The notes under the pieces were generated by a model. The model saw nothing but the letters and a program-made list of their open reading frames with translations, was not told where the DNA came from and made no database searches. DNA of 64,000 nt from assembly GCA_017441945.1 (NCBI GenBank), contig JAFSBG010000165.1:1214-65213 (forward strand). The letters are read 5' to 3'. Position numbers and translations under genes: made by a program. This document shows, piece after piece, positions 5,243-59,445 of the stretch. How positions within the stretch are numbered: the stretch's first letter is position 1; every line of letters starts with the position of its first letter. This DNA is from Clostridia bacterium (GTDB taxonomy: Bacteria; Bacillota; Clostridia; Oscillospirales; Butyricicoccaceae).

Positions 5243-6493
5243 ATGAATATACATCTTAAAATACAGGAGCTCCGCAAAAAGGCAGGGCTTTCTCAGGAGG
5301 GTTTTGCCGAGCGGCTTGGCGTTTCCCGTCAGGCTGTTTCCAAGTGGGAATCGGGCGCAAGCACTCCTGACATTGAAAAAATAATCGCCATTTCCAAAAT
5401 CTTTGAAATCTCCCTTTCCGAGCTTCTGACGGGCGAAAAGGATGAGGCACCTCTCTCCGCTGAGGCTCCGGCAGAAATCGCTGTAAACGATGAAAAATAC
5501 GAGGAGCTTTTGCAGGACCATCTCCTGCAGATAGATGAGATGCTCAAAAAGGGAAAGAAAAAGCGTCTTATATGGGGCATCGCCATTATTCTTGTTGCGG
5601 TCATTGTGATTTTCGGATATCTGATCCATCACAACAATGAGCTTCACGCTCTTGAAGCCAACATCAAAACACTGCAAAGCGATATGTCCGGCATTGCCAA
5701 TATACGCACCGACATAAACCACCAGATTTATTCCATCCGTCAGGAAATTTCCGACACTTTGAAGAAGGAATACGGCATGGTAAGCGATTTTGACATCGAA
5801 TACCGCGATATGAGTTTCCCTGACCGCACAGTTGTGCTTGATATTTACGCTTCACCAAGGCTGTGGAATAACGGCGACAGAATAAGCTTTATCATTGAAT
5901 CTGACGGAGAAAGGCTGACTGTCGACGGCATTTATGAAGACGGCACCGCAACGGCAACTGTGACTGTGCCGCTCACCGACAACATTCAGGTTTCCGCCTG
6001 CATTATAAGCGGCGGCACTACCGTGCAGGAAAGGCTTGACGACATTCGCTCGCTTCTCAGCCTTCATCTTTTAGATGTTGACGGACACGGCTCAATAAGC
6101 TCGACTCACACCGAAGGCAGCGACAGTTTTACCCTTGATGGCTCTGTCTCGGTTTTTGTAAGCACCAGGCTTTACGACGAAAACAAGTCGGCAAAATCCC
6201 AGATAAACTCCCTCACTCTTGAGTTTATCGAAAACGGAAAGGCAACTCAGACTGTCGATATGTTTGAGCTCAAGCCCGACTTCAATGCCGCCGAAATGTG
6301 CAATTTCAACTATTCGTTGGACACCATTGAGCGCTCGCTCAATGCGGGGGACACCTATGAATTCGTTGTCACTCTCACCGACCTTAACAATGTGACATAC
6401 CGCGGTGTGTTGGAGCGCATTGAAATAGGCGATAATCTCACCATCGGGCACGATAAGTCATACTACGGCAGTTTTGAGGCAATTCTGCCATAA
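5243..6493 (+). CDS. membrane-anchored XRE-family (HTH_3) transcriptional regulator, paralogue A
   Basis: N-terminal HTH LSQEGFAERLGVSRQAVSKWESG, one TM (LIWGIAIILVAVIVIFGYLI) and a ~270-aa extracytoplasmic C-domain. Colinear paralogue of 9178-10449. Confidence 0.8.
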   Translation: MNIHLKIQELRKKAGLSQEGFAERLGVSRQAVSKWESGASTPDIEKIIAISKIFEISLSELLTGEKDEAPLSAEAPAEIAVNDEKYEELLQDHLLQIDEMLKKGKKKRLIWGIAIILVAVIVIFGYLIHHNNELHALEANIKTLQSDMSGIANIRTDINHQIYSIRQEISDTLKKEYGMVSDFDIEYRDMSFPDRTVVLDIYASPRLWNNGDRISFIIESDGERLTVDGIYEDGTATATVTVPLTDNIQVSACIISGGTTVQERLDDIRSLLSLHLLDVDGHGSISSTHTEGSDSFTLDGSVSVFVSTRLYDENKSAKSQINSLTLEFIENGKATQTVDMFELKPDFNAAEMCNFNYSLDTIERSLNAGDTYEFVVTLTDLNNVTYRGVLERIEIGDNLTIGHDKSYYGSFEAILP

Positions 6494-9006: not shown

Positions 9007-9177
9007 TGCCAGATGGCATAAAATATGCTAAAATTAAGAAAAATACCCCTCCGCAACCTGGGGTTGACAAAAATCGAGCGGAAGTTGGTGGTATTTTCAC
9101 CGGATTTTCACTAAAATCAAACCATAATAAATAAGGTTGTGCACACCTCACCATGTCCCAAGGAGGTAACTTTATCT

Positions 9178-10449
9178 ATGAATATTCATCTTAAAATACA
9201 GGAGCTTCGCAAGAATGCAGGGCTTTCTCAGGAGGCTCTTGCCGAGCAGCTTGGTGTTTCCCGTCAGGCGGTTTCCAAATGGGAGTCGGGCATAAATATT
9301 CCCGACATCGACAAGATCATCGCCATCTCAAAAATCTTCGGAGTTTCCCTTTCTGAGCTTCTCACGGGAGAAAAGGAGGAGACTTCGGCGGCTGAAACTG
9401 CACCTGAATCTGCCCCTGTCCCCGACGAAAAATATGAGGAGCTTTTGCAGCAGCATCTTATGCAGGTCGATGCCATGCTCAAAGAATCGGGCAGAAAAAA
9501 GCGCTCGGGCTGGAGCATTGCTTTCCGAATTATTGCGGCGGTCGTCGCCTGCTATCTGGTGCTTTTCTATGTCGACAAGCTTCAGCGTATGGAAAACAAT
9601 ATAAATAATCTCCAGAGCAATGTGGGCAATATCCGCACCGACATAAATCATCAGATTTATTCTATCCAGAAGGAGATTTCCGAAAGTTTAAAGAAGGAAT
9701 ACGGTCTTATCAGCGACTATACTCTCGACTACCGCGATATGGATTTCCCTCGCCGCACAGTTGTGCTTGATATTTCGGCTTCGCCGAGACTCTGGAATGA
9801 GGGGGACAGCATGGCTTTTATTGTTGAAACCGACGGCGAGCAGATTTCCTGCGAGGGAATTTACAACAACGGCACGGTTTATGCCGAGATTGAGGTGCCT
9901 CTCTCGGACAATATTCAGGTTTCGGCGCTTATCACCAATGGCGGCACTGTAAAGCAGGAGAAGATAGACGAACTTCACGAGCTTCTCAGTATGCATCTGC
10001 TTGAAGTGGACGGTCACGGCTCGATTCGCTCGTCACGCGTACTTGGTGATGACAAGCTGACGATGTCGGGCGATATTTCTGTTTATGTCCACAGCAGGCT
10101 TTATGACGAAAGTCAGCCTGTTTTGTCGCGCATAAAGTCGGCAACTTTTGAGCTTATTGAAAACGGCAAGGCGACACAGACTGTCGACCTGATGAAAGAT
10201 TGTCTAGACAATACTTTCGCCGGCGTTATTGACAATGTCCGCATTGATTTTGATTATACTGTAGGCACGATTGAACGCACCATGAAGGTGGGTGACACTT
10301 ATGAATTTGTGGCTACAATCGTCGACAGCAACGATGTCACTTACAAGGGCATTCTTGAAAGCATTATGGTGACAGATGACCTCTCTGTCGAGCACAACAA
10401 GCGCGACTACGGCGAATTTGAAGTGACTTTGCCGGAGAAAGTTGAGTAA
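9178..10449 (+). CDS. membrane-anchored XRE-family (HTH_3) transcriptional regulator, paralogue B
   Basis: ATG 9178 lies 8 nt after AAGGAGG. MNIHLKIQELRKNAGLSQEALAEQLGVSRQAVSKWESG, one TM and an extracytoplasmic domain colinear with 5243-6493. Confidence 0.8.
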   Translation: MNIHLKIQELRKNAGLSQEALAEQLGVSRQAVSKWESGINIPDIDKIIAISKIFGVSLSELLTGEKEETSAAETAPESAPVPDEKYEELLQQHLMQVDAMLKESGRKKRSGWSIAFRIIAAVVACYLVLFYVDKLQRMENNINNLQSNVGNIRTDINHQIYSIQKEISESLKKEYGLISDYTLDYRDMDFPRRTVVLDISASPRLWNEGDSMAFIVETDGEQISCEGIYNNGTVYAEIEVPLSDNIQVSALITNGGTVKQEKIDELHELLSMHLLEVDGHGSIRSSRVLGDDKLTMSGDISVYVHSRLYDESQPVLSRIKSATFELIENGKATQTVDLMKDCLDNTFAGVIDNVRIDFDYTVGTIERTMKVGDTYEFVATIVDSNDVTYKGILESIMVTDDLSVEHNKRDYGEFEVTLPEKVE

Positions 10450-11647: not shown

Positions 11648-12862
11648 ATGAAAATTGGTATTATCGATGCTGATCTTCTCGACAATGGCACCCGACATCC
11701 AAACTTGGCCTGTGAAAAAATCAGCGGCTTTTACAAGGATCAGGGTAATGATGTAAAACTTATTACAAACTATAATGAAGTAGATGATTACGATAAAGTC
11801 TTTATAAGTAAGGTATTTGATTTTACAAAAGTCCCTATTGATGTATTTGATAAAAAAAGATACCCTCATATAGAGCTTGGTGGTACAGGATTCTTTTGGA
11901 GAGATTCACCTGATCTTCCTTATGAAATCGAACATCATATGCCGGACTATCATTTATATGATGAGTTTATCGGACAAGAAATCGCTCGTGGCATTAAGCC
12001 ATTGAAGTTTAAAGATTACATAGATTATTCTATTGGATTTACAACTCGTGGCTGTTTCAGAAAATGCTCTTTCTGTGTAAACGAAAAGTTTGATCATGTT
12101 TTCAGACACGCACATGTTGAAGAATTTTTGGATAAAACACGTAAATGCATTTATCTTTGGGATGATAATGTTCTTGGATATGCAAAATGGCGTGAAGTTT
12201 TTGATGAACTTAACGAGACAGGAAAGCCTTTCCAGTTCAGACAAGGCTTGGATATGCGTTTAATGACAGAAGAAAAGGCAAAAGTTTTGTCTTCTTCAAA
12301 ATATCATGGCGACTATATTTTCGCTTTCGACCATATTGAAGAACGTGATATTATTGAAGAAAAACTTAAAATCTGGCAGAAACACAGTTCACAGATTGCA
12401 AAATTGTATGTTTTGTGTGGTTATGATTCACAGGACGAGGTAGATATCGCAAACACATTCGAACGTGTTAAGATCCTTATGAAACATCATTGTCTTCCAT
12501 ACATCATGCGTCACGAATACTATTTGAAATCCAAGTACCGTGGTATATATGTAACACTTGCAAGATGGTGCAATCAGCCAAGCTTCTTCAAGAAAAAATC
12601 TTTCCGTGAATACTGTGAAGCAAATCAGGAATATCATAAGAACCCTAACACATTGTGTGCAGCTCTTTCTACAATGCGTGAATTTGAACACGATCATCCG
12701 GATATTGCAGCTAAATATTTCGATATGAAATGGGATTATCTTGGCGAAACACCTACGCAGGAATCTGACGATTTTAATGATGAACGCGAATGGAAGGACG
12801 ATTGGCAGATGGACACACCTGCTAATAATTATATCCATAATGTTGAAGGTAAGGTAAAGTAA
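11648..12862 (+). CDS. radical SAM protein (COG1032-like, Rossmann/B12-binding-like N-domain)
   Basis: 404 aa with RBS GGAGG. The CxxxCxxC cluster motif is GFTTRGCFRKCSFCV (Cys136/140/143, nt 12053-12076). Downstream blocks LWDDNVLG, FRQGLDMRL and LCGYDSQDE. Low G+C. Confidence 0.75.
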   Translation: MKIGIIDADLLDNGTRHPNLACEKISGFYKDQGNDVKLITNYNEVDDYDKVFISKVFDFTKVPIDVFDKKRYPHIELGGTGFFWRDSPDLPYEIEHHMPDYHLYDEFIGQEIARGIKPLKFKDYIDYSIGFTTRGCFRKCSFCVNEKFDHVFRHAHVEEFLDKTRKCIYLWDDNVLGYAKWREVFDELNETGKPFQFRQGLDMRLMTEEKAKVLSSSKYHGDYIFAFDHIEERDIIEEKLKIWQKHSSQIAKLYVLCGYDSQDEVDIANTFERVKILMKHHCLPYIMRHEYYLKSKYRGIYVTLARWCNQPSFFKKKSFREYCEANQEYHKNPNTLCAALSTMREFEHDHPDIAAKYFDMKWDYLGETPTQESDDFNDEREWKDDWQMDTPANNYIHNVEGKVK

Positions 12863-12870
12863 AACAATTA

Positions 12871-12901
12871 AAAAGGACTTCCAATTAAGGAAGTCCTTTT
12901 T
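12871..12901. terminator. bidirectional terminator between convergent island genes
   Basis: AAAAGGACTTCC-AATTAA-GGAAGTCCTTTT, with an A-run on one side and a T-run on the other. Confidence 0.75.
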
Positions 12902-12902
12902 A

Positions 12903-14015
12903 CTATACATTTTTCAGAATCATTTGCAATTCTTCCTCTGTACAAATAGCACTGATATATGAAAATAGTTCTCTTAATGCACCTGCTTTCCTCTGTAATG
13001 TACTACGTGTTGCACCTGCACAATTAGCTACCAGAAATTCAAGCAAATCAAAGTCTGGATCTTCTATACTATGTCTCATTATAGATACAACAATAGACTT
13101 ATCAAAAAATACATCTTTTATAATTTTATTTCTATCCTCATTTTCCATTTTCAAATAAGTCTTACCCAATTTGCTTATTTTTATTAGTTTTCCACTATTA
13201 GAATCCTCAATACTAGCAAAATTAAGAAAAGCCGCAAACTTTCCTTTTTCCTCACCAAATTTACGATTTGCACCATCAGTTGTTGATTCGCTATTACTAA
13301 AAATTGTTCTCAGTTTTCTCCCTAAATCTAAATATGAAATTCCGTCCTCATATTCACTTATAATTTTCAAAGTAGAAGGCAAATGCACCAATGTACCAAC
13401 AGGAGGAATATCTTCTAGGCTGAATGTCTGTATTTTAGGAATATCACCCATTGTTTCATCGTCTGATCTTAATAAATAATTTAATAATCCGATTTCTTCA
13501 CAATCTGAGTTTTCATCCTGACTATCTTTAATTACACTTTCATCAAATATGGTTTTTTTACCAAATTTATATCTTTTTCTCGTAATTTTCTGCAAAGTGT
13601 CTTTATCTGAATATTCTGTCTCTATATAAGTTATGTATGCTAACTCTAATTCATCATAAAAATCTTCTAGATTCTCTCCTTGTTTCCAAATATGGGAAAA
13701 ATATTTAATAAATTGAGAGATTATATACGGGTCATTTGTAGAAATACCTCCCTCAAAGTTTTCTTTTCCAGAAATAACAAACATACCGTTATTAGTAAGA
13801 TTCCCACTTGTTATCAATAAATGTCTTTCATCAACAAGATATGCCTTCATATGAAGATTTGTAACTCTTTTAACATTGTTAATATCAAACTTCTTAATTG
13901 AAAGTAAGGAATCAAAAATGGAAATGTCCGAACTTTTTTGGTATGTAAACTCACCTACATTTCCTCTAATAAGAACTTTCAAGTCGAACTCGCTTCGCTC
14001 ATCAATATTGTACAA
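12903..14015 (-). CDS. single-HKD phospholipase D-family nuclease with C-terminal non-catalytic domain (BfiI/Nuc-like layout); N-terminus probably disrupted
   Basis: HKD motif HMKAYLVDERHLLITSGNLTNNG. The ORF-track start is a TTG. The same frame stays open and PLD-like (SLVICSPYVKKDALDKL) up to a TAA at 14118-14120. That TAA is preceded by an ATG-initiated 12-codon stub (see findings). Confidence 0.7.
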   Translation of the reverse strand: MYNIDERSEFDLKVLIRGNVGEFTYQKSSDISIFDSLLSIKKFDINNVKRVTNLHMKAYLVDERHLLITSGNLTNNGMFVISGKENFEGGISTNDPYIISQFIKYFSHIWKQGENLEDFYDELELAYITYIETEYSDKDTLQKITRKRYKFGKKTIFDESVIKDSQDENSDCEEIGLLNYLLRSDDETMGDIPKIQTFSLEDIPPVGTLVHLPSTLKIISEYEDGISYLDLGRKLRTIFSNSESTTDGANRKFGEEKGKFAAFLNFASIEDSNSGKLIKISKLGKTYLKMENEDRNKIIKDVFFDKSIVVSIMRHSIEDPDFDLLEFLVANCAGATRSTLQRKAGALRELFSYISAICTEEELQMILKNV

Positions 14016-16686: not shown

Positions 16687-19275
16687 TTAGTTGGATTTTA
16701 CGGCGAGGGCATCGTTTTCGACGACGACTTCGATGTGGCTGCCGTCTGTGACTGTGCCTTCGATGATTTTTCTGCCGATGAGGGTTTCGAGGTTGCTCTG
16801 GATATATCTCTTGAGTGGACGAGCGCCGTAAATCGGATCGTATGCGTTGTCGCAGATGTAATTTTTCGCCTCATCGGAGAGGGAAATTGTCATCTGTCTG
16901 CCTTCAAGGCGCTTACGCAGGCGGTTTACAAGGAGGTCGATAATCTGGTAAATCTCGCTCTTTGCCAGCGGCTTATAGAAGACGATTTCGTCCAATCTGT
17001 TGAGGAATTCAGGCTTGAAGGAACGCTTGAGAAGAGCTGTCATCTGTTCGCGTGTTTCCTCTTTTATCTCGCCGTTTTCACCGATACCGGAGAGGAGATA
17101 TTCCGAGCCCAAGTTAGATGTCAATATGATAATTGTATTCTTGAAGTCGACCGTCTTACCCTTGGAATCTGTGATTCTGCCGTCGTCAAGCACCTGAAGA
17201 AGTGTGTTGAAAACGTCAGGGTGAGCCTTTTCTATCTCATCGAAAAGAACGACGGAATAAGGCTTTGTGCGGACGGCTTCTGTAAGCTGACCGCCCTCCT
17301 CATAGCCCACATAGCCCGGAGGGGCGCCGATGAGACGGCTGACTGAAAACTTCTCCATATACTCCGACATATCAATGCGGACTATCGAATTTTCATCGTC
17401 GAAAAGCTGCTCGGCAAGAGCCTTTGCAAGCTCGGTTTTGCCCACGCCTGTCGGGCCTAAAAACAGGAAGGAGCCTATCGGGCGGTTAGGGTCGCCGATG
17501 CCTGCGCGGGAGCGGATTATGGCCTCTGTAACCTTATTTACAGCCTCATCCTGGCCGATTACACGGCTGTGGAGGGCTTTATCCAGATTCAGAAGCTTGT
17601 CACGCTCGGATTCAACAAGGCGTGTGACAGGGATGCCTGTCCAACGGCCGATGATTTTTGCAATCTCCTCCTCGGTGACATGGTCGCGGAGGATAGATGG
17701 AGAGGATGTGTCCTGGGCATCACGCAGTTTTTTCATAAGCTCAGGCAGCTTGCCATACTTGAGTTCAGCCAGCTTTGTAAGGTCATATTCACGCTCAAGG
17801 CGCTCGATTTCGGCGTTGACAGCCTCGATTTCCTCCTTGATTTTGTGGACAGAGCCGATATTTGCCTTTTCATTGTCCCATTTTGCCTTCATTTCGGCAT
17901 ATTCTTCCCGGAGGGAAGCCAGTTCCTTGCGGGTATTTTCAAGATTCTGCATCGCAACAGCATCGGTTTCACGCTTTAATGCCGCTTCTTCGATTTCATA
18001 CTGCATGATTTTGCGGGAGATTTCGTCAAGCTCACTTGGGAGGGAGTCGATCTCTGTGCGAATCATAGCACAGGCTTCATCTATAAGGTCGATTGCCTTG
18101 TCAGGAAGGAATCTGTCAGTTATATATCTATCAGACAAAGTTGCCGCCGCAATAATTGCGCTGTCTGTAATCTGCACACCGTGGAAAACCTCGTAACGCT
18201 CCTTAAGACCGCGGAGAATTGAGATTGTATCCTCGACAGTCGGCTCATCAGCCATGACAGGCTGGAAACGGCGCTCGAGGGCGGCATCCTTTTCGATGTA
18301 CTTGCGGTATTCGTCAATAGTTGTGGCGCCGATACAATGGAGCTCGCCTCTTGCAAGCATTGGCTTTAAAAGATTGCCTGCGTCCATTGCGCCGTCTGTC
18401 TTGCCTGCGCCGACGATGGTGTGAAGCTCGTCGATGAAGAGGATGATTCGTCCGTCCGACTCCTTGACTTCGGATAAAACAGCCTTGAGACGCTCTTCAA
18501 ATTCGCCGCGGTACTTGGCACCTGCGATGAGAGAGCCCATATCGAGGGCGAAAATAGTCTTATCTTTAAGTCCTTCCGGCACATCGCCCTTCATAATGCG
18601 GATTGCCAGACCTTCGACGATGGCTGTCTTGCCGACACCAGGCTCGCCGATGAGGACAGGATTGTTCTTGGTTTTGCGGGAAAGAATGCGGACAACGCTT
18701 CGGATTTCGCTGTCGCGGCCGATTACAGGGTCGATTTTCTGCTGACGAGCGCGCTCCACAAGGTCGTAGCCGTACTTTTTCAGCGCTTCGTAAGTTGCTT
18801 CAGGATTGTCGCTTGTGACACGGTTTGCGCTTCGCACTGTGCGGAGAGCATTTAAAAAGCCGTTTTTGTCAATGCCGAGACGGCGGAAAAAGTCCTTGAC
18901 ATTGGTTTCATTGGAGTCGATGAGAGTCATAAAGATATGCTCGACAGAAACATATTCGTCGTTCATATTTTTTGCGGCATCTTCCGAATCGGAGAGGATT
19001 TTTTCGGTTGTCGGGGAGATATAAATCTTGCCCTGCTCACGGGCTGTGCCCATTGCCTTAGGCAGTTTTGCCACATACTCGTCGGCCATTGTTTTGGCAA
19101 GATCGATATTGATGCCCATTTTTTCCAGGAGCGACGGAATAAGACCATTTTCCTGATGGACAAGGCTGCTCAGAATGTGGATAGGCTCTATCTGCGGATT
19201 GCCGTATTCGAGGACTTTTTTTTCGGCATTCTGAATTGCTTCGATGGATTTTTGTGTGAATTTCTGTGCGTTCAT
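16687..19275 (-). CDS. clpB: ATP-dependent chaperone ClpB
   Basis: 862 aa with a Clp_N domain, two AAA+ modules ([18 protein letters not shown]) and the long coiled-coil middle domain characteristic of ClpB. Confidence 0.95.
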
Positions 19276-19299: not shown

Positions 19300-19505
19300 G
19301 TGGAAATGAATTGATGCTGTGCATCATGAATTGATTTAATCATGAATTGGCTGCGCCATGAATTGCATCAAAGATGCATTTAGGTGTGAGGCAAGCTCAC
19401 ATTTGATAGGCAACAACCCCTCCGTCTTGCTATCGCAAGCCACCTCCCCGATAATGGGGGTCCCCGCAAAGCCTGCTTTGTGGGGTGAATTCACAGGGGA
19501 GGCTT
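19300..19505. repeat. intergenic hairpin mosaic D
   Basis: ATGAATT-word array with four words at 19306, 19326, 19342 and 19358, each followed by a mini-hairpin. Then GTGTGAGGCAAGCTCACATTTGATAGG, CTCCGTCTTGCTATCGCAAGCCACCTCCCC, and GGGGTCCCCGCAAAGCCTGCTTTGTGGGGTGAATTCACAGGGGAGG. Confidence 0.85.
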
Positions 19506-20263: not shown

Positions 20264-20805
20264 CTCGCCACGCGCAAGGCGTGGAACGTCTTCGACGAGT
20301 TCTTTATGCTTGCACAAAAGAACCAAAATGCCCAAACTGATCCACGCAGTTTGATCACGGGACCAGAGGGCACTCTGGACTCCTTGTGTGTTCGTTCCTC
20401 ACATATGGACAGGTTGGGGTGGGTTACATTTCTGAGAAAACTTCAATTAAACCGTAAGGTTTCCGATTTTTTGTAGGGGCGAGCATTGCTCGTCAGCCTA
20501 TTCGATCCGTGACAAAGTCACACATTATATCCGCACAGCGGAATGTAATCACACGCAGTGTGTATGTAATCGCATGGCGTATGGCATCACCAAGAGTGTA
20601 TGTAATCGGTGCCTGCGGCGCATTTAATAGGGCGGGACGTCGAGGGCGCCGTCCCCTACAAGGATTGTGCAAAGTGCGGGAATAAGTTTTATGATTATAT
20701 TACAACCCCTCCACCACCATTCGGTGGTCCCCCTCCCCTTACACAGGGGAGGCTATGGAGGGAATAAGTTTCGTTGCGGGGCGGCGTTGCTTTCCGCCCC
20801 ATGGA
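20264..20805. repeat. intergenic hairpin mosaic E
   Basis: A ~100-nt element at 20264-20361 is a diverged reverse copy of 38075-38172. Also REP 20473-20494, the GTGACAAAGTCACAC module, a GTATGTAATC-word array at ~20525-20625, REP 20632-20659, the CCACCATTCGGTGG/CCTCCCCTTACACAGGGGAGG modules, and a degenerate REP at 20776-20800. Confidence 0.85.
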
Positions 20806-21062: not shown

Positions 21063-22790
21063 ATGACACAAAACAATCAGACAACACCACGCTCCTCTTC
21101 TTCAAGAAAGGGCAAGCGTGTGAAAGCGCGCAGAAGACAGGCTTTGCTTGGCATCTCTGCCCTCGCGCTCATTGCGGTTTTATGTGCCGTTTATGTTTTC
21201 ACCACAGTAATCATGCCTAAGGGCATCTTCAAGGGCGTCACATTTATGGACAAGGACCTTGCTATGATGAGCCAGACTCAGGCCGAAGAAACTATCCGTC
21301 AGGCTGTAAACTCTCTCGGCATTTCGGAAAATATCGAGCTCAACCTCGGCAACGACAAGTTTGATATTTCTACAACTCTCAACGCGGCAAACATCGATGC
21401 AAAGGCTCTTGCTGAAGATGCTTACAACTACGGCAGAGAAGGCTCCTTCTCCGAACGTATGAAGGCTATCAAGGCTGCGAAGAAGGACGGCTACAAGCTT
21501 TCCTGCGATATCGCGCCTGACAGAGAAGCTCTTCTTTCCCAGATTGACGAAGCTATCAAGGCTGCAAGCGCAAACTCGGGCAACGAGCTTTATGAGCTTA
21601 AGGGCGAAGAGATTATTGTAAATCTTGACCACGGCATGAGCTTTGACAGAGAAAAGATTGCTGACCTTCTCGTTGAGAAGATTACAGCTCTCGATTTTGC
21701 TCCGATTTCCTATGAGCCTGACGAAGGCGAAATCAGCGCGGCAACTCTCAAGAGCATGGTAGACGTTGAAATGGCTGAGCCTACTATCGACGTCAATGAC
21801 CCTACATGCCAGACAATCATTCCTGGCGTTGTCGGCTACACACTCGATGCAAAGCAGGCTGAATATCTCATCGAAAATGCAGAAAGCGACACAGTTGCTA
21901 TCCCTGTTACAGTCACAAAGCCTACTTACACAGACGAACAGTACAAGTCGATGATTTTCCGTGATGTGCTTTCCAGCCAGTCCACATCCTTTAACGGCAA
22001 CCAGATCCAGCGTACAGCAAACATCCGCATTGCGGCAAGTGACTGCGAAACTGTCATTATGCCTGGCGAAGAGTTCTCCTACACAGAACAGGTAGGCAGA
22101 ATCACACGTGAAAAGGGCTATCAGGATGCTTTAGTCTTCAGCCAGGGCGAAGTTGTTGACGGTCTCGGCGGCGGCGTTTGCCAGGTTTCTTCCACAATTT
22201 ACATGGCTGCTATGTATGCTGACATGGAAATCACAGTAAGACGTAACCACAGCTTTGTTGTTTCCTACACACCTGTCGGTCAGGACGCTACATTCGTTTA
22301 CGGCGGTCAGGACTTCAAGTTCAGAAACAACACAAACTTCCCAATCAAGATAGACTGCTCTGTTGGCAAGAACTCCATCACAGTAAAAATTATCGGTACT
22401 CAGGAAACACTGGGCAAATCTGTCAAGGTTATTACTGAAATCCTTTCTACAAATCCGTTTGAAGAACAGCACGTTTATGACCCCACACTTGCGCCTGACG
22501 AAGTAAAGGTAAAGAATGTGGGCTACACAGGCTACAAGGCTAACACATACCGTATTATTTACATCGACGGCAAGGAAGTTTCCAGAAACTTTGAAGCTTC
22601 CAGCACATACAAGCGCCTTGACAAGGTGACACTTTACGGCACAGACCCTAATGCTCCTGTAGTCGAGCCTGTAGTGCCGCCAACAGAAGCTCCGACCGAA
22701 GCACCAACAGAGGCACCGACAACTGCACCTACAGAAGCTCCGACTGAAGCTCCTACAGAGGCAACCGAAGGCACAACTGCGGCGGAATAG
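21063..22790 (+). CDS. VanW family protein with N-terminal TM and C-terminal P/T/E/A repeat tail
   Basis: 575 aa with the VanW core GYQDALVFSQGEVVDGLGGGVCQVSSTIYMAA. A signal-anchor lies at residues ~27-50. The tail is PTEAPTEAPTEAPTTAPTEAPTEAPTEA. Confidence 0.85.
   Translation: MTQNNQTTPRSSSSRKGKRVKARRRQALLGISALALIAVLCAVYVFTTVIMPKGIFKGVTFMDKDLAMMSQTQAEETIRQAVNSLGISENIELNLGNDKFDISTTLNAANIDAKALAEDAYNYGREGSFSERMKAIKAAKKDGYKLSCDIAPDREALLSQIDEAIKAASANSGNELYELKGEEIIVNLDHGMSFDREKIADLLVEKITALDFAPISYEPDEGEISAATLKSMVDVEMAEPTIDVNDPTCQTIIPGVVGYTLDAKQAEYLIENAESDTVAIPVTVTKPTYTDEQYKSMIFRDVLSSQSTSFNGNQIQRTANIRIAASDCETVIMPGEEFSYTEQVGRITREKGYQDALVFSQGEVVDGLGGGVCQVSSTIYMAAMYADMEITVRRNHSFVVSYTPVGQDATFVYGGQDFKFRNNTNFPIKIDCSVGKNSITVKIIGTQETLGKSVKVITEILSTNPFEEQHVYDPTLAPDEVKVKNVGYTGYKANTYRIIYIDGKEVSRNFEASSTYKRLDKVTLYGTDPNAPVVEPVVPPTEAPTEAPTEAPTTAPTEAPTEAPTEATEGTTAAE
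22678..22768 (+). repeat. in-frame 12-nt tandem repeat encoding (PTEA)n
   Basis: About 7 imperfect copies of CCNACNGARGCN at the 3' end of the VanW gene. Confidence 0.8.
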
Positions 22791-22795
22791 CAGGT

Positions 22796-23045
22796 ATCAC
22801 CTGCGGTGATGCGATATGCACTTCGTGCGCGATATAATGCTTCGCATTGCGATATTCGCTTTTTACCCCACAATTGCGAGCGATATGTTTGCTTTGCAAA
22901 CGTTGTGGTGTGACAAGTCACATTGGATAAGTTCACTCCCTCCGTCACACTTCGTGTGCCACCTCCCTCGTCTGAGGGAGGCAAGAAAGCTTCGATTTAA
23001 TCAAAGCTTTTCATTACGGAACGTCGAGAACGCCGTTCCCTGCAT
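22796..23045. repeat. intergenic hairpin mosaic F (GCGATAT array copy 1)
   Basis: ATCACCTGCGGTGAT starts 6 nt after the stop, followed by GCGATAT + mini-hairpin units to 22910. Then GTGTGACAAGTCACATTGGATAAG, CTCCCTCCGTCACACTTCGTGTGCCACCTCCCTCGTCTGAGGGAGGCAAGA, and a degenerate REP at 23017-23043. Confidence 0.9.
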
Positions 23046-24010: not shown

Positions 24011-24015
24011 CACAT

Positions 24016-24335
24016 ATCACCTGCGGTGATGCGATATACACTTCGTTCGCGATATAATGCTTCGCATTGCGATATTCGCTTTTTACCCCAGGCGGCAGGC
24101 CACCCGGGGACCCCACAATTGCGAGCGATATGTTTGCTTTGCAAACGTTGTGGTGCCTGCGGCGCGTTTGATAAAACGAGCTACGCTCTGTGGGAGGGCA
24201 CAGAGACCCTCCCCTACATCTTCCTTGTTAAGAACAAGTTTGTAGGGGCGGCGGTTCCATCCCCGCCCGCTTATCAAATCCGTGCGAAGCACACCGCAGT
24301 TCTTCACTTTTAACTATTACTTATAACTTTGCAAT
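24016..24335. repeat. intergenic hairpin mosaic G (GCGATAT array copy 2)
   Basis: The array at 24016-24155 is near-identical to 22796-22910 apart from a 25-nt indel (24091-24115) and 2 substitutions. Also REP 24192-24217, hairpin CTTGTTAAGAACAAG, REP 24242-24270, and TTCACTTTTAACTATTACTTATAACTTT words. Confidence 0.9.
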
Positions 24336-24374: not shown

Positions 24375-25142
24375 ATGGCATTAAACCCTAAAACCAACGT
24401 CTACACACAGCGCGCATCGGCAATTTACAAGGAAAATATAAAAATAATTTTCCTTCTGGCTGCTCTTACCGCAGTATTGGAAATCGTTTTCGATGCACTT
24501 GGCAATAACAGCGACGGCATTGTCGGTCTTATCATTATGATAGTACGCATAATTGTAACAGCTCCGCTGCTTATCTGCACATACCATGTATATACCCGCG
24601 CTATCAACGGCAAATCAACATCGGCGGATTTTGTTTTCACATGGCTTACCAATATAAGCCGTATTAAAAACGGCGCCGAAGCCGAAATCAGAATCACAAT
24701 CAAGGCTATCGGCTGGTATATCGTTTATGCAGTTATCGTTGTTTTCAGCGCATTTTTAGGTCCTCTTTCCTTTATCGGAATTGCAGGCGGCTTTATTTTC
24801 CTCACATATATGCTCCTCAGATACAACGGCGCACTTTATGAATGCGCCGCAAACCCTGACTGTGATGTAAAGCAGATGGTAGAATTCGGCATTGATAAGT
24901 TGAAGGTCTGCATGGGCGAATATGTAAACCTCTGGCTCGCTTCCGCTCTCCCTGCTATTCTTATCATCACAGTGCTTGAAATGTTTCTTGCACAGTCATG
25001 GATTGTCCATATTATCCGTATTTTAAGCTTTATAGTTATCGACCTTTTCATTCTTCCACGATTCCATATTGCAGGCATTATGCTCTATAATGACGGCTAT
25101 ATGGTGCCTGTCACACAGGCTCGTGAAGATTTTGAAATGTAA
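24375..25142 (+). CDS. DUF975-like polytopic membrane protein, paralogue 2
   Basis: 255 aa with RBS AAGGAGG and motif LRYNGALYECAANPD. Same topology as its neighbours. Confidence 0.6.
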   Translation: MALNPKTNVYTQRASAIYKENIKIIFLLAALTAVLEIVFDALGNNSDGIVGLIIMIVRIIVTAPLLICTYHVYTRAINGKSTSADFVFTWLTNISRIKNGAEAEIRITIKAIGWYIVYAVIVVFSAFLGPLSFIGIAGGFIFLTYMLLRYNGALYECAANPDCDVKQMVEFGIDKLKVCMGEYVNLWLASALPAILIITVLEMFLAQSWIVHIIRILSFIVIDLFILPRFHIAGIMLYNDGYMVPVTQAREDFEM

Positions 25143-25179
25143 TTTCCCCTTTATCTCACCCGAAAGGAGTGAATGTTAT

Positions 25180-26181
25180 ATGAAAAACAAAGAAATACGC
25201 AAAAAGGCGCTTCGCCTTTTTAACGATAACCTTTCCCTTATCGCCTTTATGGCGCTTATGCTGTCGCTTTTTCAGGTGGCGGTTTCTGTGGCGAGCGTTA
25301 TCACATTTGAAGCTGTCGGAGCAAACACAATCGTCAGCATGCTGAGCATGTTTGTGACAGCTCCTATCACAATCTGTATGTACAATGTCTACAGCCTGCT
25401 TATAAGGGGCGGTGTCAAGGTACACAAGGGCTACCTTTTTGAATGGCTTGGCGATTTCAAGCTTATCTGGCACAGCGTAAAGGTGCAGCTTATGTTTGCT
25501 TTCAAGCTTATTCCATGGGCTATGCTCGTTTCCATCGCTGGGAGCTTTGTTATGACAATGCTGACAGGCTATGCTGAAATCCTTGTTCTTCCCGAAACTG
25601 TGCAGATTATCGTAATGGCGGTTTTCTTCGTTATCGCCATGCTTTTCCTGCTTTATCAGTCTTTCAGATATCAGGGCGGTCTTTTTGAATGTGCCGCTGT
25701 GCCGATGAAGATTATCACCCCGATTTTCCACATCGGTATGGTCAAAATGAAGTACAACCTCAAGGATTACATCAAGCTTATGATGTCATATCTGCCGATT
25801 ATCATTCTTTTCTCGGCTCCTGTGCTGGCTTATGAGATAATCAAGGGCGAATATGATGCGATTTATTACGCTCTGCTGGTTTTTGAAACTGTGGGCACAA
25901 GCTTTGTTGTAAATCCGCTTATCGGCATTTCGGGTATGATCCGCTATAATGTAGGCGGCAAGATTCCGCCTGAGCATTTCTTCCAGTCTTTCGGCATGAA
26001 ACGCCCTAAGGAATACGGCGGCGAAGTGAACACAAGCGGCGAGGCTGAAAAGCCTGAAATCACAGACCCTGAGCCAATGCCAAGGGAAGAAAATCCTTCT
26101 CAGCCGGGCAATATCGGCGATATTCCTTTTGACAATGCGCCTTCTTCCGAGGATAATGCAGACGAGGAAGAACAGGAGTAA
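25180..26181 (+). CDS. DUF975-like polytopic membrane protein, paralogue 3
   Basis: ATG 25180 follows AAAGGAG. The ORF-track start at 25069 overlaps the previous gene. Motif FRYQGGLFECAAVP, with an acidic P/E-rich tail. Confidence 0.6.
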   Translation: MKNKEIRKKALRLFNDNLSLIAFMALMLSLFQVAVSVASVITFEAVGANTIVSMLSMFVTAPITICMYNVYSLLIRGGVKVHKGYLFEWLGDFKLIWHSVKVQLMFAFKLIPWAMLVSIAGSFVMTMLTGYAEILVLPETVQIIVMAVFFVIAMLFLLYQSFRYQGGLFECAAVPMKIITPIFHIGMVKMKYNLKDYIKLMMSYLPIIILFSAPVLAYEIIKGEYDAIYYALLVFETVGTSFVVNPLIGISGMIRYNVGGKIPPEHFFQSFGMKRPKEYGGEVNTSGEAEKPEITDPEPMPREENPSQPGNIGDIPFDNAPSSEDNADEEEQE

Positions 26182-26184
26182 ATG

Positions 26185-26560
26185 TATCACCTATGGTGAT
26201 GCGATATGCACTTTGTGCGCGATATGCACTTTGTGCGCGATATGCACTTTGTGCGCGATATGCGCTTCGCGCGCGATATTTTTGCTATGCAAAAGCGATA
26301 TGTTCCTTTGGAACGTAAAGGTGCCTGCGGCGCATCCGATAATTTTCTCTCCCTCCGTCACTTCGTGACACCTCCCTCGTCAGAGGGAGGCAAGAAAATT
26401 TGTCATTCTGAGGGTTAACCCCGAAGAATCTCCTTCGATTTGCACAATCACGGGATGCCTGGGCGTCATCCCTTACAATTAAATAGACGGGCTACGCCCT
26501 ACACCCCTCCGACGGCTTACTCCGCCACCTCCCCTTAACAATGGGAGGCAATAATCAGTC
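26185..26560. repeat. intergenic hairpin mosaic H (GCGATAT array copy 3)
   Basis: TATCACCTATGGTGAT, then six GCGATAT units to ~26314, then GTGCCTGCGGCGC. Next come CTCCCTCCGTCACTTCGTGACACCTCCCTCGTCAGAGGGAGGCAAGA (26347-26397), reversed GTCATTCTGAGGG..GAAGAATC, REP-like 26448-26476, ATTAAATAGACGGGCTACGCCCTAC, and CCTCCCCTTAACAATGGGAGG. Confidence 0.9.
26201..26272 (+). repeat. 18-nt perfect tandem repeat x3 plus one variant
   Basis: GCGATATGCACTTTGTGC occurs at 26201, 26219 and 26237, then GCGATATGCGCTTCGCGC at 26255. Each unit is the word GCGATAT plus an 11-nt hairpin. Confidence 0.9.
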
Positions 26561-29824: not shown

Positions 29825-30055
29825 CGGATTTTTGCGGGCGGGCACAGAGGCACCGCCCCTACAGCTATTCTTTCGTAGTAACCCCTCGTAGGGGAGGGTC
29901 TCCGCGCCCTCCCGCCCTATCAAATGCGCCGCAGGCATCGCAATTTTCAACTTTCAACTTTCAATTTTCAACTTATAACTTTCCTTATTGGAGCGGAAAG
30001 CATCTCCAGTACACCATCTCGACATCGGACGAGCAATGCTCGCCCCTGCACTATT
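29825..30055. repeat. intergenic hairpin mosaic I
   Basis: REP 29834-29862 (CCCTAC tail), reversed linker CTATTCTTTCGTAGT, REP 29888-29915 (GTAG head), GCGCCGCAGGCATCGC, TTTCAACTTTCAACTTTCAATTTTCAACTTATAACTTT words, and REP 30027-30050. Confidence 0.85.
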
Positions 30056-31206: not shown

Positions 31207-31440
31207 AAATGAATTGCACAAAATGTGCGTGAATTGATGCAAGCATCATGAATTGCGCTACGCGCATGAATTGAATTGCTTTGCAATTCATTGCGGTGCC
31301 TGCGGCGCTATCAGATAAAACGCCCTTTGGGCTACACCTCATCCACCGCAAGCGGTCCCCCTTCCCCTCAAGGGGAAGGCATTGAGATTGTTCGTAGGGA
31401 CCGGCGTCCCCGACGGTCCGCTTATTCAATCGTGCACAGC
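31207..31440. repeat. intergenic hairpin mosaic J
   Basis: ATGAATT-word array (31207-~31290) ending in GGTGCCTGCGGCGC. Then CACCTCATCCACCGCAAGCGGTCCCCCTTCCCCTCAAGGGGAAGG and REP 31394-31421 (GTAGGGACCGGCGTCCCCGACGGTCCGC). Confidence 0.85.
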
Positions 31441-34850: not shown

Positions 34851-35125
34851 TATCACCTGCGGTGATGCGATATAACGCTTTGCGTTGCGATATATAAATG
34901 CGATATGTCCTTTGGACGCGATATATTTGCTTCGCAAATGATGCGGTGCCTGCGGCGCCATTAAATACTTATCAGGTCGGCTCTGAGCGGGAGTCAAGCA
35001 GTAAATCTGTCATTCCGAAGCGCAGCGAGGAATCTCCTCCCCTTACGCACACTCTGCAGGGTGCATTCACGAATGCACCTCGGGATGCCGGGGCGTCGTC
35101 TCCTACAATACACCCGCCCTGCACA
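34851..35125. repeat. intergenic hairpin mosaic K (GCGATAT array copy 4)
   Basis: TATCACCTGCGGTGAT starts 4 nt after the stop, followed by GCGATAT units to 34958 (..GGTGCCTGCGGCGCC). Then reversed GTCATTCCGAAG..GAGGAATC, hairpin GGTGCATTCACGAATGCACC, and REP-like 35081-35106. Confidence 0.9.
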
Positions 35126-36788: not shown

Positions 36789-37012
36789 ATGAAGTTTCAC
36801 TTCATCAGCTAAATTCGCTCCGCGAGTTAAATTGCCTTCGGCAGTTAAATTCATTACGAGCTAAATTGCACTATATGCAGATAAAGTATCTGCGATGCAT
36901 TTAATAAAAGTTCTCTCCCCCCGCCCTTTGGGCACTCCCCTCGTCAGAGGGAGGCAAGAAAAGATTGTGCCATTGGGCTTGAAAGATTCTTCGGCGTTTC
37001 CTCAGAATGACA
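36789..37012. repeat. intergenic hairpin mosaic L
   Basis: GATGAAGTTTCACTTCATC, then a TAAATT-word array with mini-hairpins (CGCTCCGCG, GCCTTCGGC, ...). Then CTGCGATGCATTTAATAA, CTCCCCTCGTCAGAGGGAGGCAAGA, and GGGCTTGAAAGATTCTTCGGCG..CAGAATGACAG. Confidence 0.85.
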
Positions 37013-39439: not shown

Positions 39440-39770
39440 ATGCCATTATATGTGGCAAGAGGGCTATTTGGTAGGGACAATTCACGAATTGTCCGATTAA
39501 ATATGCCTTTGGCACCACCTCATCCACCATTCTCCGAATGGTCCCCCTTCCCCTCAAGTGGAAGGCAAGAGGACTGTGCGTAGGGGCGAGCATTGCTCGT
39601 CCGCGTTATTTAATCCGTTGCGGAGCAACACCGTATATCTGCACAGCAGTATGTAATCACCGCAGGTGTATGTAATCGTCTTGCTTATGGTATCAACTTT
39701 GTTGTATGCAATCAATGCATGCGGCGCATTGAATAGAGAACTTCCCCTCAAGGGGAAGGCAAGAGATTTT
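39440..39770. repeat. intergenic hairpin mosaic N
   Basis: REP 39471-39495 (GTAGGGACAATTCACGAATTGTCCG), the CACCTCATCCACCATTCTCCGAATGGTCCCCCTTCCCCTCAAGTGGAAGG module, REP 39570-39592, TTATTTAATCCGTTGCGGAG, a GTATGTAATC-word array at ~39625-39735, and CTTCCCCTCAAGGGGAAGGCAAGAG. Confidence 0.85.
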
Positions 39771-52980: not shown

Positions 52981-53400
52981 AAAGCCTTCCCTGCATAAGG
53001 GGAGGCTTTTTTGTTGTGCGGGGTGTGGAGGACGATTACATACATTTTCAATGATGCCATACGCTTCACAATTACATACACCTGCGGTGATTACATACCG
53101 CTGTGCGGATATAAGGTGTTGCTATGCAACTGATTTATTAAGCGGGCGGGCATGGAAACCCGCCCCTACGGATTGACTACGAAAGAACGGTTGTAGGGGC
53201 GGTGGTTCCATCCCCGTCCGCAGGAGATGTAATAAGTAAAAGTGAATAGTGAAGAAGTGCGGTGTGATACCCCAAGGGCACTTACGCAAGTCACATTTGG
53301 TAGGTTTCTCTCCCTCCGTCACTTCGTGACACCTCCCCGATAATGGGGTCCCCGCAAAGCCTGCTTTGTGGGGTGAATTCACAGGGGAGGCAAGAGTATG
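52981..53400. repeat. intergenic hairpin mosaic T
   Basis: AGCCTTCCCTGCATAAGGGGAGGCT + T-run, a reversed GTATGTAATC array at ~53033-53135, and REP 53142-53169, linker, REP 53193-53221. Also reversed TTCACT words, GTGTGATA..GTCACATTTGGTAGG, CTCCCTCCGTCACTTCGTGACACCTCCCC, and GGGGTCCCCGCAAAGCCTGCTTTGTGGGGTGAATTCACAGGGGAGGCAAGAG. Confidence 0.85.
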
Positions 53401-57167: not shown

Positions 57168-57718
57168 TATGTCACCATAGGTGACGCGATATGTGTGTTG
57201 CACACGATATGTTCCTGCGGAACGCGATATTCGGCTTCGCCGAGCGATATGTTTTCCTGCGGAAAACATTAAGATATCTGCGGCGCGATTTAATAAGCGG
57301 GAGGGCGCACAGAGACCCTCCCCTACGCACAATCCCCTTGCCTCTCCTGTTTCAGGAGAGGTGGCACACGAAGTGTGACGGAGAGGTAAATCTTATTCAA
57401 TCCGTGACGGAGTCACACCGTACTTTTTCACTTTTCACTTTTACTTATTACTTTCTATTGCGGACCGTCGGGGACGCCGGTCCCTACAATATCTCTTGCC
57501 TCCCCTGCATACACTCCCCTTGCCTCCCTCAGACGAGGGAGGTGGCTGAGCATAGCGAAGTCGGAGGGAGTGAATCTTATTGAATGTGATTTATCACACC
57601 GTACTTCTTCAATATTGAACGGCGAGAGCAAGCCCCCGCCCTACGTTCTCTGCGGGACGCCCTCAGCACCGTCCCTTGCATAATTTAAATGGGCGGGTTT
57701 CCATGCCCGCCCGCAATT
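57168..57718. repeat. intergenic hairpin mosaic U (GCGATAT array copy 5)
   Basis: The array GTCACCATAGGTGAC + GCGATAT units spans 57171-57287. REPs lie at 57297-57326, 57460-57487 and 57652-57679, with a headless REP at 57691-57714. Also reversed CTCCGTCAC../CCTCTCCTGTTTCAGGAGAGG, TTTTCACTTTTCACTTTTACTTATTAC words, CCTCCCTCAGACGAGGGAGG, GTGATTTATCACAC, and a 47-nt unit at 57604-57650. Confidence 0.9.
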
Positions 57719-58213: not shown

Positions 58214-58273
58214 TGTTGTACTCTTTTTTTGAATGAATTGTCCCGATGGGACATTGTGGTATCTGCGATGCAT

Positions 58274-59120: not shown

Positions 59121-59445
59121 TTTTATCACCTGCGGTGATGCGATATGCGCATAGCGCGCGATATATAAATGCGATATATCCTGCAGATGCGATATGTTTT
59201 CCGTGAAAACACAAATGTATCTGCGATGCGATTTAATAAGCGGGACGTCGGGGGCGCCGTCCCCTACAAGAAAGTTCTATAGCCTCCCCTGTGCAAGGGG
59301 AGGGGGACCGTTGGAACAACGGTGGAGGGGTTGTTACCTATAAAAATGTGATTTATCACACATTGCTTTTTCAATATTGAGCGGCGAGAGCAAGCCCCCG
59401 CCCTACGTTCTCCACGGGAGGGCGCAGAGACCCTCCCCTACGATG
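59121..59445. repeat. intergenic hairpin mosaic W (GCGATAT array copy 6)
   Basis: Array at 59124-59230, REP 59240-59267, CCTCCCCTGTGCAAGGGGAGG + reversed CCACCGTTGTTCCAACGGTCCCCC, GTGATTTATCACAC, a 47-nt unit at 59365-59411, and REP 59416-59441 ending 6 nt before the pnuC stop. Confidence 0.9.

Follow-up and report, generated by a model that had tools for sequence, protein, structure and literature searches.

The question raised by this locus is what kind of genetic element is formed by short arrays in which a constant seven-nucleotide word alternates with hairpins whose sequence changes from one unit to the next. Such arrays are carried by a 64-kb stretch of the genome of a Clostridia bacterium (contig JAFSBG010000165.1, positions 1,214 to 65,213; hereafter the window), where the array that begins at position 26185 can serve as the type. 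All obey one grammar: a longer hairpin precedes 3–7 units, each made of the 7-nt word and of a 3–7 bp hairpin flush against it, after which come a terminal hairpin, then a degenerate word and a tail rich in AT. The arrays constitute a repeat family of Oscillospirales (Clostridia) that lies outside Rfam 15 and that we have not found described, its closest kinds being the repetitive extragenic palindromes (REP) with the bacterial interspersed mosaic elements (BIME) that contain them, and the BOX elements. The reading that we favour, tentatively and short of calling it probable, is that they represent a new class of structure-constrained modular repeats akin to REP, BIME and BOX.

The word GCGATAT occurs 37 times in the window for 9.1 ± 2.8 expected, a count that none of 100 shuffles reached, and 27 of these occurrences lie in six plus-strand arrays, all of them found where the original prediction, a reading of the bare sequence, had placed them (Table 1). 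The 10 copies outside the arrays (7 on the plus strand, 3 on the minus strand) compare with 9 expected, i.e. there is no over-representation there, and the idea that the word is a Chi site was dropped. Pairing was scored on inter-word segments of 7–24 nt lying between two exact words, a perfect stem of 3 bp or more, flush with the words, being required. In the window, 14 of the 15 segments so scored possess such a stem; over 70 array-bearing loci it is present in 249 of 282 segments (88%), which comprise 234 distinct sequences, against about 7 of 282 (2.4%) in shuffles. The proposal that the inter-word segments self-pair therefore withstood its shuffle control and, as the two ends of a segment pair with each other, the hairpins sit flush against the words. 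A strict finder that ignores the identity of the word (at least three identical words with flush hairpins between them) retrieved 3 arrays from the window and 0 from 20 randomisations of it. The loops are of 3–4 nt and begin with T (TTC, TGC, TTT, TGAC, TTGC), the closing pair is C-G in 81% of the units and the first stem base is never C. Their earlier description as UUCG- or UUYG-like must be given up, since a UUCG register breaks the stems. By contrast with shuffles, the folding of whole arrays shows a moderate gain (z from −0.75 to −4.4), and the minimum free energy fold often joins one unit to another. As repeated palindromes pair among themselves, global folding was discarded as uninformative, and the evidence for the mini-hairpins is comparative, not thermodynamic. 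A perfect triplication of one unit in array 26185, also predicted, is recovered by Tandem Repeats Finder (26201–26279, period 18, 4.4 copies, 95% matches).

The ends of the arrays are less uniform than had been thought. The opening hairpin said to be common to the six, TATCACCTGCGGTGAT, is exact at 22795, 24015, 34851 and 59124 and departs from this sequence at 2 positions in array 26185 (the window has 8 matches at no more than 3 mismatches, for 0.5 expected), but array 57171 opens with another hairpin. The closing hairpin GGTGCCTGCGGCGC is indeed over-represented (14 matches at no more than 3 mismatches in the window for 4.2 expected) and also ends arrays built on other words, but it varies (GTGCC..GGCGC, GTATC..GATGC, GTGTGAC..GTCACA). 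A GTAG-type REP, expected after every array, follows three of the six and is missing after the other three.

The use of other words in the same design was upheld for the arrays of the ATGAATT and TAAATT types and not for the GTATGTAATC elements, which are homologous copies of a single element of ~100 nt whose hairpins do not vary freely. The word-agnostic finder, run on 2.3 Mb of fetched loci, retrieved arrays built on GTGAATT, ATGAATT, GCTAAAT, GTGAAGT, GTGATAT, GTTATAT, TCGATAT and ACGATAT in other species, the first four being alternative words also used in the window, or near variants of such words. Judged by their sequences, the array words are forms of a single degenerate heptamer, approximately G-Y-K-A-W-W-T, with GCGATAT as the commonest form: the word is constant within an array and drawn from a degenerate family between arrays. 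GCGATAT is essentially invariant across about 70 species-level genomes, whereas the stems vary freely; that the word could be the target-site duplication left by tiny fold-back insertions does not fit with this conservation. Resemblances to Xer/dif sites and omega heptads (GTTAAAT, TATGTAAT, ATCAC) are taken to be coincidental. Tracts with a 7-nt period and no hairpins also occur directly upstream of ribosome-binding sites in the window (CACTTTT/ACTTATT at 24295–24335, 57422–57455 and, on the minus strand, 53235–53275) and in the relative L276 (TTTCAAC/TATCAAC at 18480–18540; L numbers designate loci or contigs other than the window). They may be related to the word-only array 29941–29983.

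The family extends far beyond this chromosome, in line with the expectation that arrays would be found in relatives. When 185,579 species genomes were scanned for three words at a spacing of 8–16 nt, at least 118 loci were obtained; 69 of those fetched are of the hairpin type (70 with the window), the remainder being ordinary tandem repeats or chance matches. Among the loci with known titles (L002–L081), those of the hairpin type nearly all belong to metagenome-assembled genomes (MAGs) of Clostridia from animal guts, L058 being from an Actinomycete, and the family is widespread in MAGs of Oscillospiraceae, Acutalibacteraceae and Ruminococcus. Three viral contigs also bear arrays. One of them, L177, has three, all co-oriented with the structural genes, between open reading frames (ORFs) of the portal, Prp-like, scaffold-like and capsid-like types (putative names, given from their N-terminal sequences) and beside GTAG REPs. 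A BLAST search of the double array (see below) against annotated phages and plasmids gave no match, and a metagenome scan with the opening sequence specific to the window gave two, both judged to be chance. At the gathering thresholds of Rfam 15, the only match in the window is one tRNA-Arg, and only tRNA and a ZTP riboswitch were found in 18 array-bearing loci, which excludes a known RNA family at these thresholds. A limited literature search found no described counterpart of word-hairpin arrays and nothing relevant on the link with PF05635 discussed below, the nearest work being that on REPs with GTAG or CGTC tags. The original view that this is not a described repeat class thus stands within these searches.

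Comparison with relatives, taken as contigs carrying orthologues of the methionyl-tRNA synthetase (MetRS) gene and graded by nucleotide identity, reveals how the arrays come and go. In the three most distant ones (L120, L123 and L125; 67–70% identity), the order VanW, MetRS, TatD, MreC, penicillin-binding protein (PBP) is common to all, RlmA being present only in L120, and the gaps between these genes, mostly of 20–70 nt, contain neither arrays nor GTAG REPs. In L124 (~86–89%), the gap before MetRS is of 120 nt and holds two REPs that start at the exact nucleotide where array 26185 starts in the window. At ~92% identity, the same array is present in six samples (L276–L281), with different downstream modules in L278. 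In L276, the unit found in triplicate in the window is single and the closing hairpin of the array reads GTATC-TGC-GATGC, i.e. two compensatory pair changes with the T.G wobble kept. At the VanW site (22795), L276 has 1 unit for 4 in the window, with GTGCCTGCGGCGC as the closing hairpin between the same flanks, so that the predicted polymorphism of unit number does exist between relatives. In the same contig, a TGAAG-word array stands in place of the GCGATAT array at site 24015 and an ATGAATT array in place of that at 34851, array 31209 (ATGAATT) being identical. Within the window, arrays 22795 and 24015 are paralogues of each other. This graded series indicates that the arrays are recent, lineage-specific additions, swapped as cassettes and resized by whole units. 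They are one part of a lineage-specific filling of gaps that were formerly of 20–70 nt, in which GTAG REPs and further palindromic modules also take part; between close relatives, they are gained, lost and replaced as whole cassettes, and their unit count changes at the word. Retained arrays are more conserved than silent sites: array 26185 differs from its L276 counterpart, over 113 alignable nt, by 1 unpaired change and the 2 compensatory pair changes and array 31209 by none, against 9.7% of the four-fold degenerate sites of MetRS.

The position of the arrays relative to genes is less regular. Four of them do lie close behind a stop codon, as had been noticed, starting 3–4 nt after it. Among all arrays of the window (roughly 15 when all words are counted), about 8 are in the sense orientation 0–10 nt past a stop codon and about 7 are antisense or divergent; in other genomes, co-orientation with the upstream gene prevails by about 2:1 on a crude ORF criterion. 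No terminator-like U-tract follows the array hairpins, and a terminator scan yields only weak matches at the arrays; the reading of arrays as intrinsic terminators was dropped for lack of a T-run. As the arrays behind VanW and the next two genes lie within a string of genes that is tightly packed in the relatives, and have no U-tract, they are very probably transcribed by read-through, and several arrays are probably transcribed and tolerated. A dedicated role as 3' untranslated regions or in the protection of mRNA ends, as initially envisaged, is not borne out: arrays 57171 and 59124 are antisense, the overall bias is as weak as just described, the same operon lacks arrays in the genus-level relatives, and arrays of other words take their place at the same site in the relative at ~92% identity. 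Any effect of the arrays on RNA, such as that of a roadblock, would be secondary.

A more elaborate form, in which a reverse array comes immediately after a forward one, was found in 26 of the at least 118 loci of the genome scan, nearly all Clostridia MAGs, as well as on the viral contig L136 and in loci reached independently through a neighbouring protein. Such a double array is of ~175–210 nt and comprises a host hairpin (hp0), four GCGATAT units and three to four ATATCGC units. In the forward half, hp1 is AAATYCC..GGRATTT, hp2 and hp3 have stems of 3–5 bp and hp4 is GTSCC..GGSAC; then come a degenerate fifth word, a distal copy of the 3' arm of hp1 and ATATC. In the reverse half, tandem G.A/A.G pairs, placed in a CGA...GAG context, are frequent within the hairpins. 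The 19 double arrays compared, each from a different species, have 14–19 distinct sequences at each hairpin position. Covariation was assessed on the first three and last three bases of six inter-word segments, cells that were picked by position and not by pairing: 95.3% of them pair against 70.2% in shuffles, none of 500 shuffles reaching 95.3%; 16 of 18 pairs have changed on both sides, and controls with slid partners pair at 24–51%. Across species, there is three-way covariation between the two arms of hp1 and the distal copy. RNAalifold moreover pairs the words of the two halves (W1:W8', W2:W7', W3:W6', W4:W5'), the result being a ladder made of 7-bp helices from which hairpins branch off. 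As the words are nearly invariant, covariation is silent on this ladder; among its word variants, one is compensated (GAGATAT with ATATCTT in L084) and several are not. Mismatches in the double arrays are purine-purine or G.T solely on the strand shown, which argues that this is the strand that folds.

The hairpin hp0 has a stem of 6–19 bp whose base is usually TG(A)...(T)CA. It can consist of the last codons of RumA and their reverse complement, of a canonical terminator (A-run, stem, T-run) or of a hairpin in which galK or a phage gene has its stop codon, so that the arrays, hp0 often being host sequence, directly abut a long hairpin on its 3' side. In the first of these forms (rumA 3' ends in L007, L046, L084 and L284; also L087 at 2160–2200), the last codons of the upstream gene (for RumA, HVE-T/C-V/I/C-A..) are followed by their reverse complement, the ORF reads through hp0 and stops at the TAA of GCGATA-TAA, and the arms differ between species while staying complementary. 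Sigma-70-like promoters, recognised by eye, are found ~40 nt upstream of the first GCGATAT in L082, L094 and L027 (TTGAAA-17-TATAAT, TTGTAA-17-TATAAT, and TTGTGT-17-TATAAT with an extended −10); they end exactly where hp0 begins, and transcription from them would start inside its 5' arm.

The double array has a preferred neighbour. A gene encoding a four-helix-bundle protein of family PF05635 (23S_rRNA_IVP), which we presume to include Avd, the pentameric factor of diversity-generating retroelements (DGRs), begins 13–15 nt past the last word, ribosome-binding site included, in L007, L027, L084, L087 and L095. Thus, in each of the five complete loci examined, a double array stands ahead of this gene, and truncated copies of the gene lie behind a double array in two others (L046 and L057); its ribosome-binding site is 1–8 nt after the last word. 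Conversely, loci reached through the PF05635 protein alone (the L284 and L294 sets) have the same array upstream. In L087 (2180–2870) and L294 (2830–3640), a forward array, a reverse array, the PF05635 gene and another forward array follow one another, and the upstream terminator is duplicated in L294; this arrangement looks like that of a cassette which would have been integrated by recombination at a forward array. All-versus-all clustering of the ORFs from 72 array loci found PF05635 in 6, RumA in 5 and a family of ABC-type ATPases in 6, the last recurrence being taken to be coincidental. These associations make the PF05635 protein a candidate partner of the arrays. Among the 120 best PF05635 hits, about 16 are ORFs whose start was misplaced at AT-GTCCCTTCGGGAC, i.e. 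at the fourth word and hp4; these calls (P0150, P0151, P0155, P0205, P0251 and about 11 more, beginning with MSLRDE...) are ~40 residues too long, the array having been translated in silico.

In the reading that we favour, the arrays would be non-autonomous DNA repeats constrained by structure, in the manner of REP and BIME, BOX or integron attC sites. The folded single strand would be recognised and copied, the word serving as the sequence tag and the hairpin being read by its shape; the number of units would be set by slippage or unequal exchange between words, and the spread would be due to a mobilising enzyme. The archetype would be the double array located directly before the PF05635 gene, the one-sided arrays of the window being amplified half-elements. 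This reading is ranked first since it covers the presence/absence patterns, the paralogy, the mixed orientations, the company of REPs and the phage copies. Several facts weigh against it. No transposase, REP-associated tyrosine transposase (RAYT) or recombinase is encoded among the ORFs of the window, and none recurs near the arrays in the 72 loci beyond three loci with a large serine recombinase. Neither a target-site duplication nor a precise empty-versus-filled pair was found for any single array, so that mobility is deduced from presence/absence and paralogy rather than demonstrated. Taken singly, hairpins of 3 bp with three-nucleotide loops have a marginal thermodynamic stability. That retained arrays change less than synonymous sites is at least as readily explained by a host function as by a selfish element. 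The restriction of tandem G.A pairs and G.T wobbles to one strand and the promoter-like sequences just upstream of three double arrays both suit an RNA. A functional RNA is the first rival, which we regard as doubtful: clusters of hairpins devoid of U-tracts would block exonucleases or insulate cistrons, and the double array would be a 5' leader or a small RNA whose ladder of four-way junctions controls, or is bound by, the product of the PF05635 gene downstream. Besides the one-strand pairs, the promoters and the slow change of the arrays, the strong covariation of the double arrays, the RNAalifold ladder with its compensated L084 variant, the short distance between the last word and the PF05635 ribosome-binding site, the 8 of about 15 window arrays placed 0–10 nt behind a sense stop codon and the co-orientation of the phage copies with structural genes all speak for it. 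It accounts poorly, however, for an orientation bias of about 2:1, with 7 of about 15 window arrays antisense or divergent, for the same operon doing without arrays in relatives and for the interchange of arrays with different words at one site; furthermore, most word variants of the reverse half lack a compensating change, a one-sided array has no means of forming the ladder in cis, and the putative promoters would start transcription inside hp0.

The double array and the PF05635 gene could also form a distinct new module, which we hold to be unlikely: the 7-bp word ladder with perfect four-way junctions, as RNA or single-stranded DNA, would be recognised by the PF05635 protein, and the whole would move as a cassette and leave or seed solo half-arrays that amplify in some lineages. 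Were it true, it would supply a nucleic-acid partner and a mechanism for a family long unexplained outside DGRs. A related proposal, less probable still, goes back to the original prediction and treats the heptamers as putative sites of an oligomeric protein, best the PF05635 product, with hairpins that would align successive words and with the dispersed arrays as its set of sites. The invariance of the words beside variable stems, their single degenerate family, the joining of a word-only tract of 7-nt period to the usual closing hairpin, the four words plus a degenerate fifth in each half of the double array, and the double array ahead of all five complete PF05635 genes and the two truncated ones would be expected from such a register; against this, neither the 64-kb window nor ~19 kb of L276 contains a PF05635 gene, a word spacing of 16–31 nt gives no helical phasing on duplex DNA, and the occurrence of both word orientations suits a single-stranded RNA-binding site poorly. 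Quasipalindrome correction, i.e. template switching that restores pairing, is an established mutational mechanism, and the arrays might be its neutral by-product, a palindromic unit duplicated in tandem and kept paired without any function. The recent triplication in array 26185 agrees with this, as do neighbouring units that differ by paired changes (GCAC..GTGC and GCGC..GCGC in the window, GTTAC..GTAAC and GTTGC..GCAAC in L087), a within-array count whose small sample and biased filter leave it an anecdotal value, and two paralogous hp0 copies in phage L177 that differ solely by a compensated C/A-G/T change. We nonetheless rate it as very improbable, as it leaves unexplained the invariant word across about 70 genomes, the rules on loops and closing pairs, the constant succession of hairpin types, the three-way covariation between hp1 arms and distal copy and the sub-synonymous divergence, and as correction should erase the conserved T.G wobble and the tandem G.A pairs.

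Covariation and sub-synonymous divergence show selection on a folded single strand. If the repeat reading is confirmed, a structured class made of a constant heptamer and of hairpins defined by shape only would join REP/BIME, BOX, ERIC (enterobacterial repetitive intergenic consensus), Correia and CRISPR (short palindromic repeats, clustered and regularly interspaced). Its hosts, the Oscillospirales, are an abundant and poorly studied clade of the gut and rumen that is known mostly from MAGs, in which such repeats break assemblies and inflate ORF calls. The polymorphism of units and cassettes between close relatives would make good typing markers, and the PF05635 link provides a testable hypothesis for a family without known role outside DGRs.

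Table 1. Word-hairpin arrays of the window and the repeat modules associated with them (positions are those of the window)
Feature	Position	Strand	Details
Array 26185, opening hairpin	26185..26200	+	TATCACC-TAT-GGTGAT; 3 nt past the TAA stop of ORF 25069-26181
Array 26185, six GCGATAT words	26201, 26219, 26237, 26255, 26273, 26295 (block 26201..26319)	+	hairpin flush after each
Array 26185, hairpins in order			GCAC-TTT-GTGC x3, GCGC-TTC-GCGC, TTTTGC-TAT-GCAAAA, GTTCC-TTT-GGAAC; then degenerate word GTAAA
Array 26185, closing hairpin and AT-rich tail	26320..26346	+	(G)GTGCC-TGC-GGCGC with conserved T.G wobble, then ATCCGATAATTTT
GCGATAT array	22795..22931	+	after VanW-like gene; opening hairpin, 4 words, closing GTGTGAC-AA-GTCACA + TTGGATAAG
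GCGATAT array	24015..24177	+	paralogous to 22795; common units AATGCTTCGCATT, TCGC..GCGA, GTTTGCTTTGCAAAC
GCGATAT array	34851..34968	+	3 nt past the stop of RlmA-like methyltransferase gene; one spacer, ATAAAT, without hairpin
GCGATAT array	57171..57298	+	opening GTCACC-ATA-GGTGAC; antisense between minus-strand PNPOx-like gene 57719-58273 and pyruvate:ferredoxin oxidoreductase (PFOR) gene 53463-57002
GCGATAT array	59124..59241	+	antisense between minus-strand DUF3841 gene (start 59106) and NMN transporter gene (stop 59448); GTAG REP next
ATGAATT-word array	19306..19410	+	four word-hairpin units, closing hairpin, TTTGATAGG; upstream of minus-strand ClpB start
ATGAATT/GTGAATT-word array	31209..31321	+	directly past the stop of AI-2E-like gene; GGTGCCTGCGGCGC closing hairpin
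GYTAAAT-word array	36789..36910	+	immediately past DcuC stop; opening ATGAAGT-TTC-ACTTCAT, closing GTATCTGCGATGC + ATTTAATA
Word-only array, 7-nt period	29926..29983	-	(AAAGTTG/AAAATTG) x6, joined to closing hairpin GATGCCTGCGGCGC, ATTTGATA, REP
TATGTAAT(C)-word element	20525..20632	+	homologous copies 39625-39735 (+), 63690-63745 (+), 49655-49760 (-), 53033-53135 (-)
GTAG-type REPs (examples; many more)	24186-24268, 20475-20500, 20632-20660, 29845-29915, 59241-59268, 60800-60910		
CACCCCACAAAGCAGGCTTTGCGGGGACCCC module	24083-24115, 19455-19500, 49985-50025 (-), 53340-53390 (-), 60505-60545, 63440-63480		24083-24115 lies in unit 3 of array 24015

The window is a stretch of Clostridia chromosome with recognisable genes for ClpB, a VanW-like protein, MetRS, a PBP transpeptidase, an RlmA-like methyltransferase, DcuC and PFOR; its MetRS falls in a 90% cluster, the named members of which are MAGs under the labels Oscillospiraceae, Ruminococcaceae or Clostridia bacterium. 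These housekeeping genes, and a megablast against phage records that gave no match, led to the rejection of a phage origin. RumA, the ABC-type ATPase family and the large serine recombinase, recurrent neighbours of arrays elsewhere, are likewise not among its genes. GTAG-type REPs (GTAGGGG and a palindrome of varying stem, or the complement ..CCCCTAC) crowd most intergenic regions of this genome; they also occur on the phage contig L177 and are absent from the genus-level relatives L120, L123 and L125. A separate module, CACCCCACAAAGCAGGCTTTGCGGGGACCCC with its variants, is nested in the loops of other hairpins, namely CCTCCCC..GGGGAGG hairpins and unit 3 of array 24015, whose loop holds an inserted ACCCC..GGGG module of ~24 nt; judging from these positions, the nesting suggests insertion targeted to loops. 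Directly before array 22795, the 3' end of the VanW/G5 gene contains a 12/24-nt periodic repeat (22680–22768) that encodes a (T/P)EAP-rich tail. Elsewhere in the window, a low-GC island (12001–14000; 33% versus ~46%) with a PLD-like/DUF4948 gene (12903–14015, minus strand) and an unannotated ORF of 404 residues (11648–12862) is possibly a horizontally acquired defence-like locus, and two paralogous proteins of ~420 residues (5243–6493 and 9139–10449), whose N-terminal domain is of the XRE/HTH_3 type and in which no C-terminal domain is recognised, are encoded on either side of an FtsX-like permease gene.

Compared with known systems, the arrays resemble CRISPR in the alternation of a constant repeat with variable segments and in the polymorphism of unit number. 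They differ from it by a repeat of 7 nt instead of 23–55 nt and by variable segments of 9–20 nt that, being self-complementary, cannot be captured foreign DNA; together with the absence of cas genes or domains from the window, this anatomy led to the rejection of a CRISPR. As in integron attC sites, structure is kept while sequence varies, a folded single strand would be recognised and a small promoterless gene lies nearby, the forward-reverse-gene-forward arrangement of L087 and L294 recalling a cassette between its sites. The words that flank a hairpin are, however, direct repeats and not the inverted R''/R' cores (RYYYAAC/GTTRRRY), the units are far smaller and the window encodes no IntI integrase, so that an attC reading was also rejected. 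As regards miniature inverted-repeat transposable elements (MITE), defined by terminal inverted repeats and a target-site duplication, the double arrays have GCGATAT as their beginning and ATATCGC as their end, no target-site duplication was seen, and the window arrays are one-sided. The sponge RNAs CsrB and RsmZ, and ToxI, similarly display a short constant motif between or on hairpins, ToxI as an array beside its partner gene; unlike in CsrB and RsmZ, the motif is not GGA and, whereas ToxI consists of identical 36-nt repeats processed by ToxN, the present arrays occupy many loci in both orientations.

The REPs and BIMEs associated with RAYTs are palindromic repeats tagged by GTAG or CGTC (PMC3733652, PMC2817692), and a 2013 survey of these tags reports GTAG repeats in Proteobacteria, Cyanobacteria, Chloroflexi and the PVC group (Planctomycetes, Verrucomicrobia, Chlamydiae) and never mentions Firmicutes or Clostridia (PMC3733652). 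The arrays share with them short extragenic hairpins, a constant tag beside a palindrome, mosaic intergenic blocks, variation between strains and a presumed handling as folded single strands, and, like REPs in part, are extragenic and multi-copy; true GTAG REPs even adjoin them in the window. Yet they fail the REP-defining features that were tested, i.e. the GTAG tag, the family-specific stem and the alternating orientation: their tag is GCGATAT or a kindred heptamer between all hairpins, GTAG being confined to separate neighbouring REPs; a REP family consists of imperfect palindromes of 20–40 nt with a kept stem, whereas array units are of 9–20 nt with stems of 3–7 bp, 234 of 282 being distinct; and the units are all head-to-tail instead of alternating with defined linkers as in BIMEs. 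No gene for a RAYT (a Y1 HUH transposase) was found among the ORFs of the window or as a recurrent neighbour in the 72 loci. BOX elements are of the form boxA-boxB(n)-boxC. The likeness to those of Streptococcus pneumoniae, which is architectural only, lies in the succession of an opening module, a middle module in variable number and a closing module, and in an intergenic, foldable and copy-variable nature; where boxB is a conserved sequence of ~45 nt, however, the middle unit of the arrays is a 7-nt word joined to a hairpin of free sequence.

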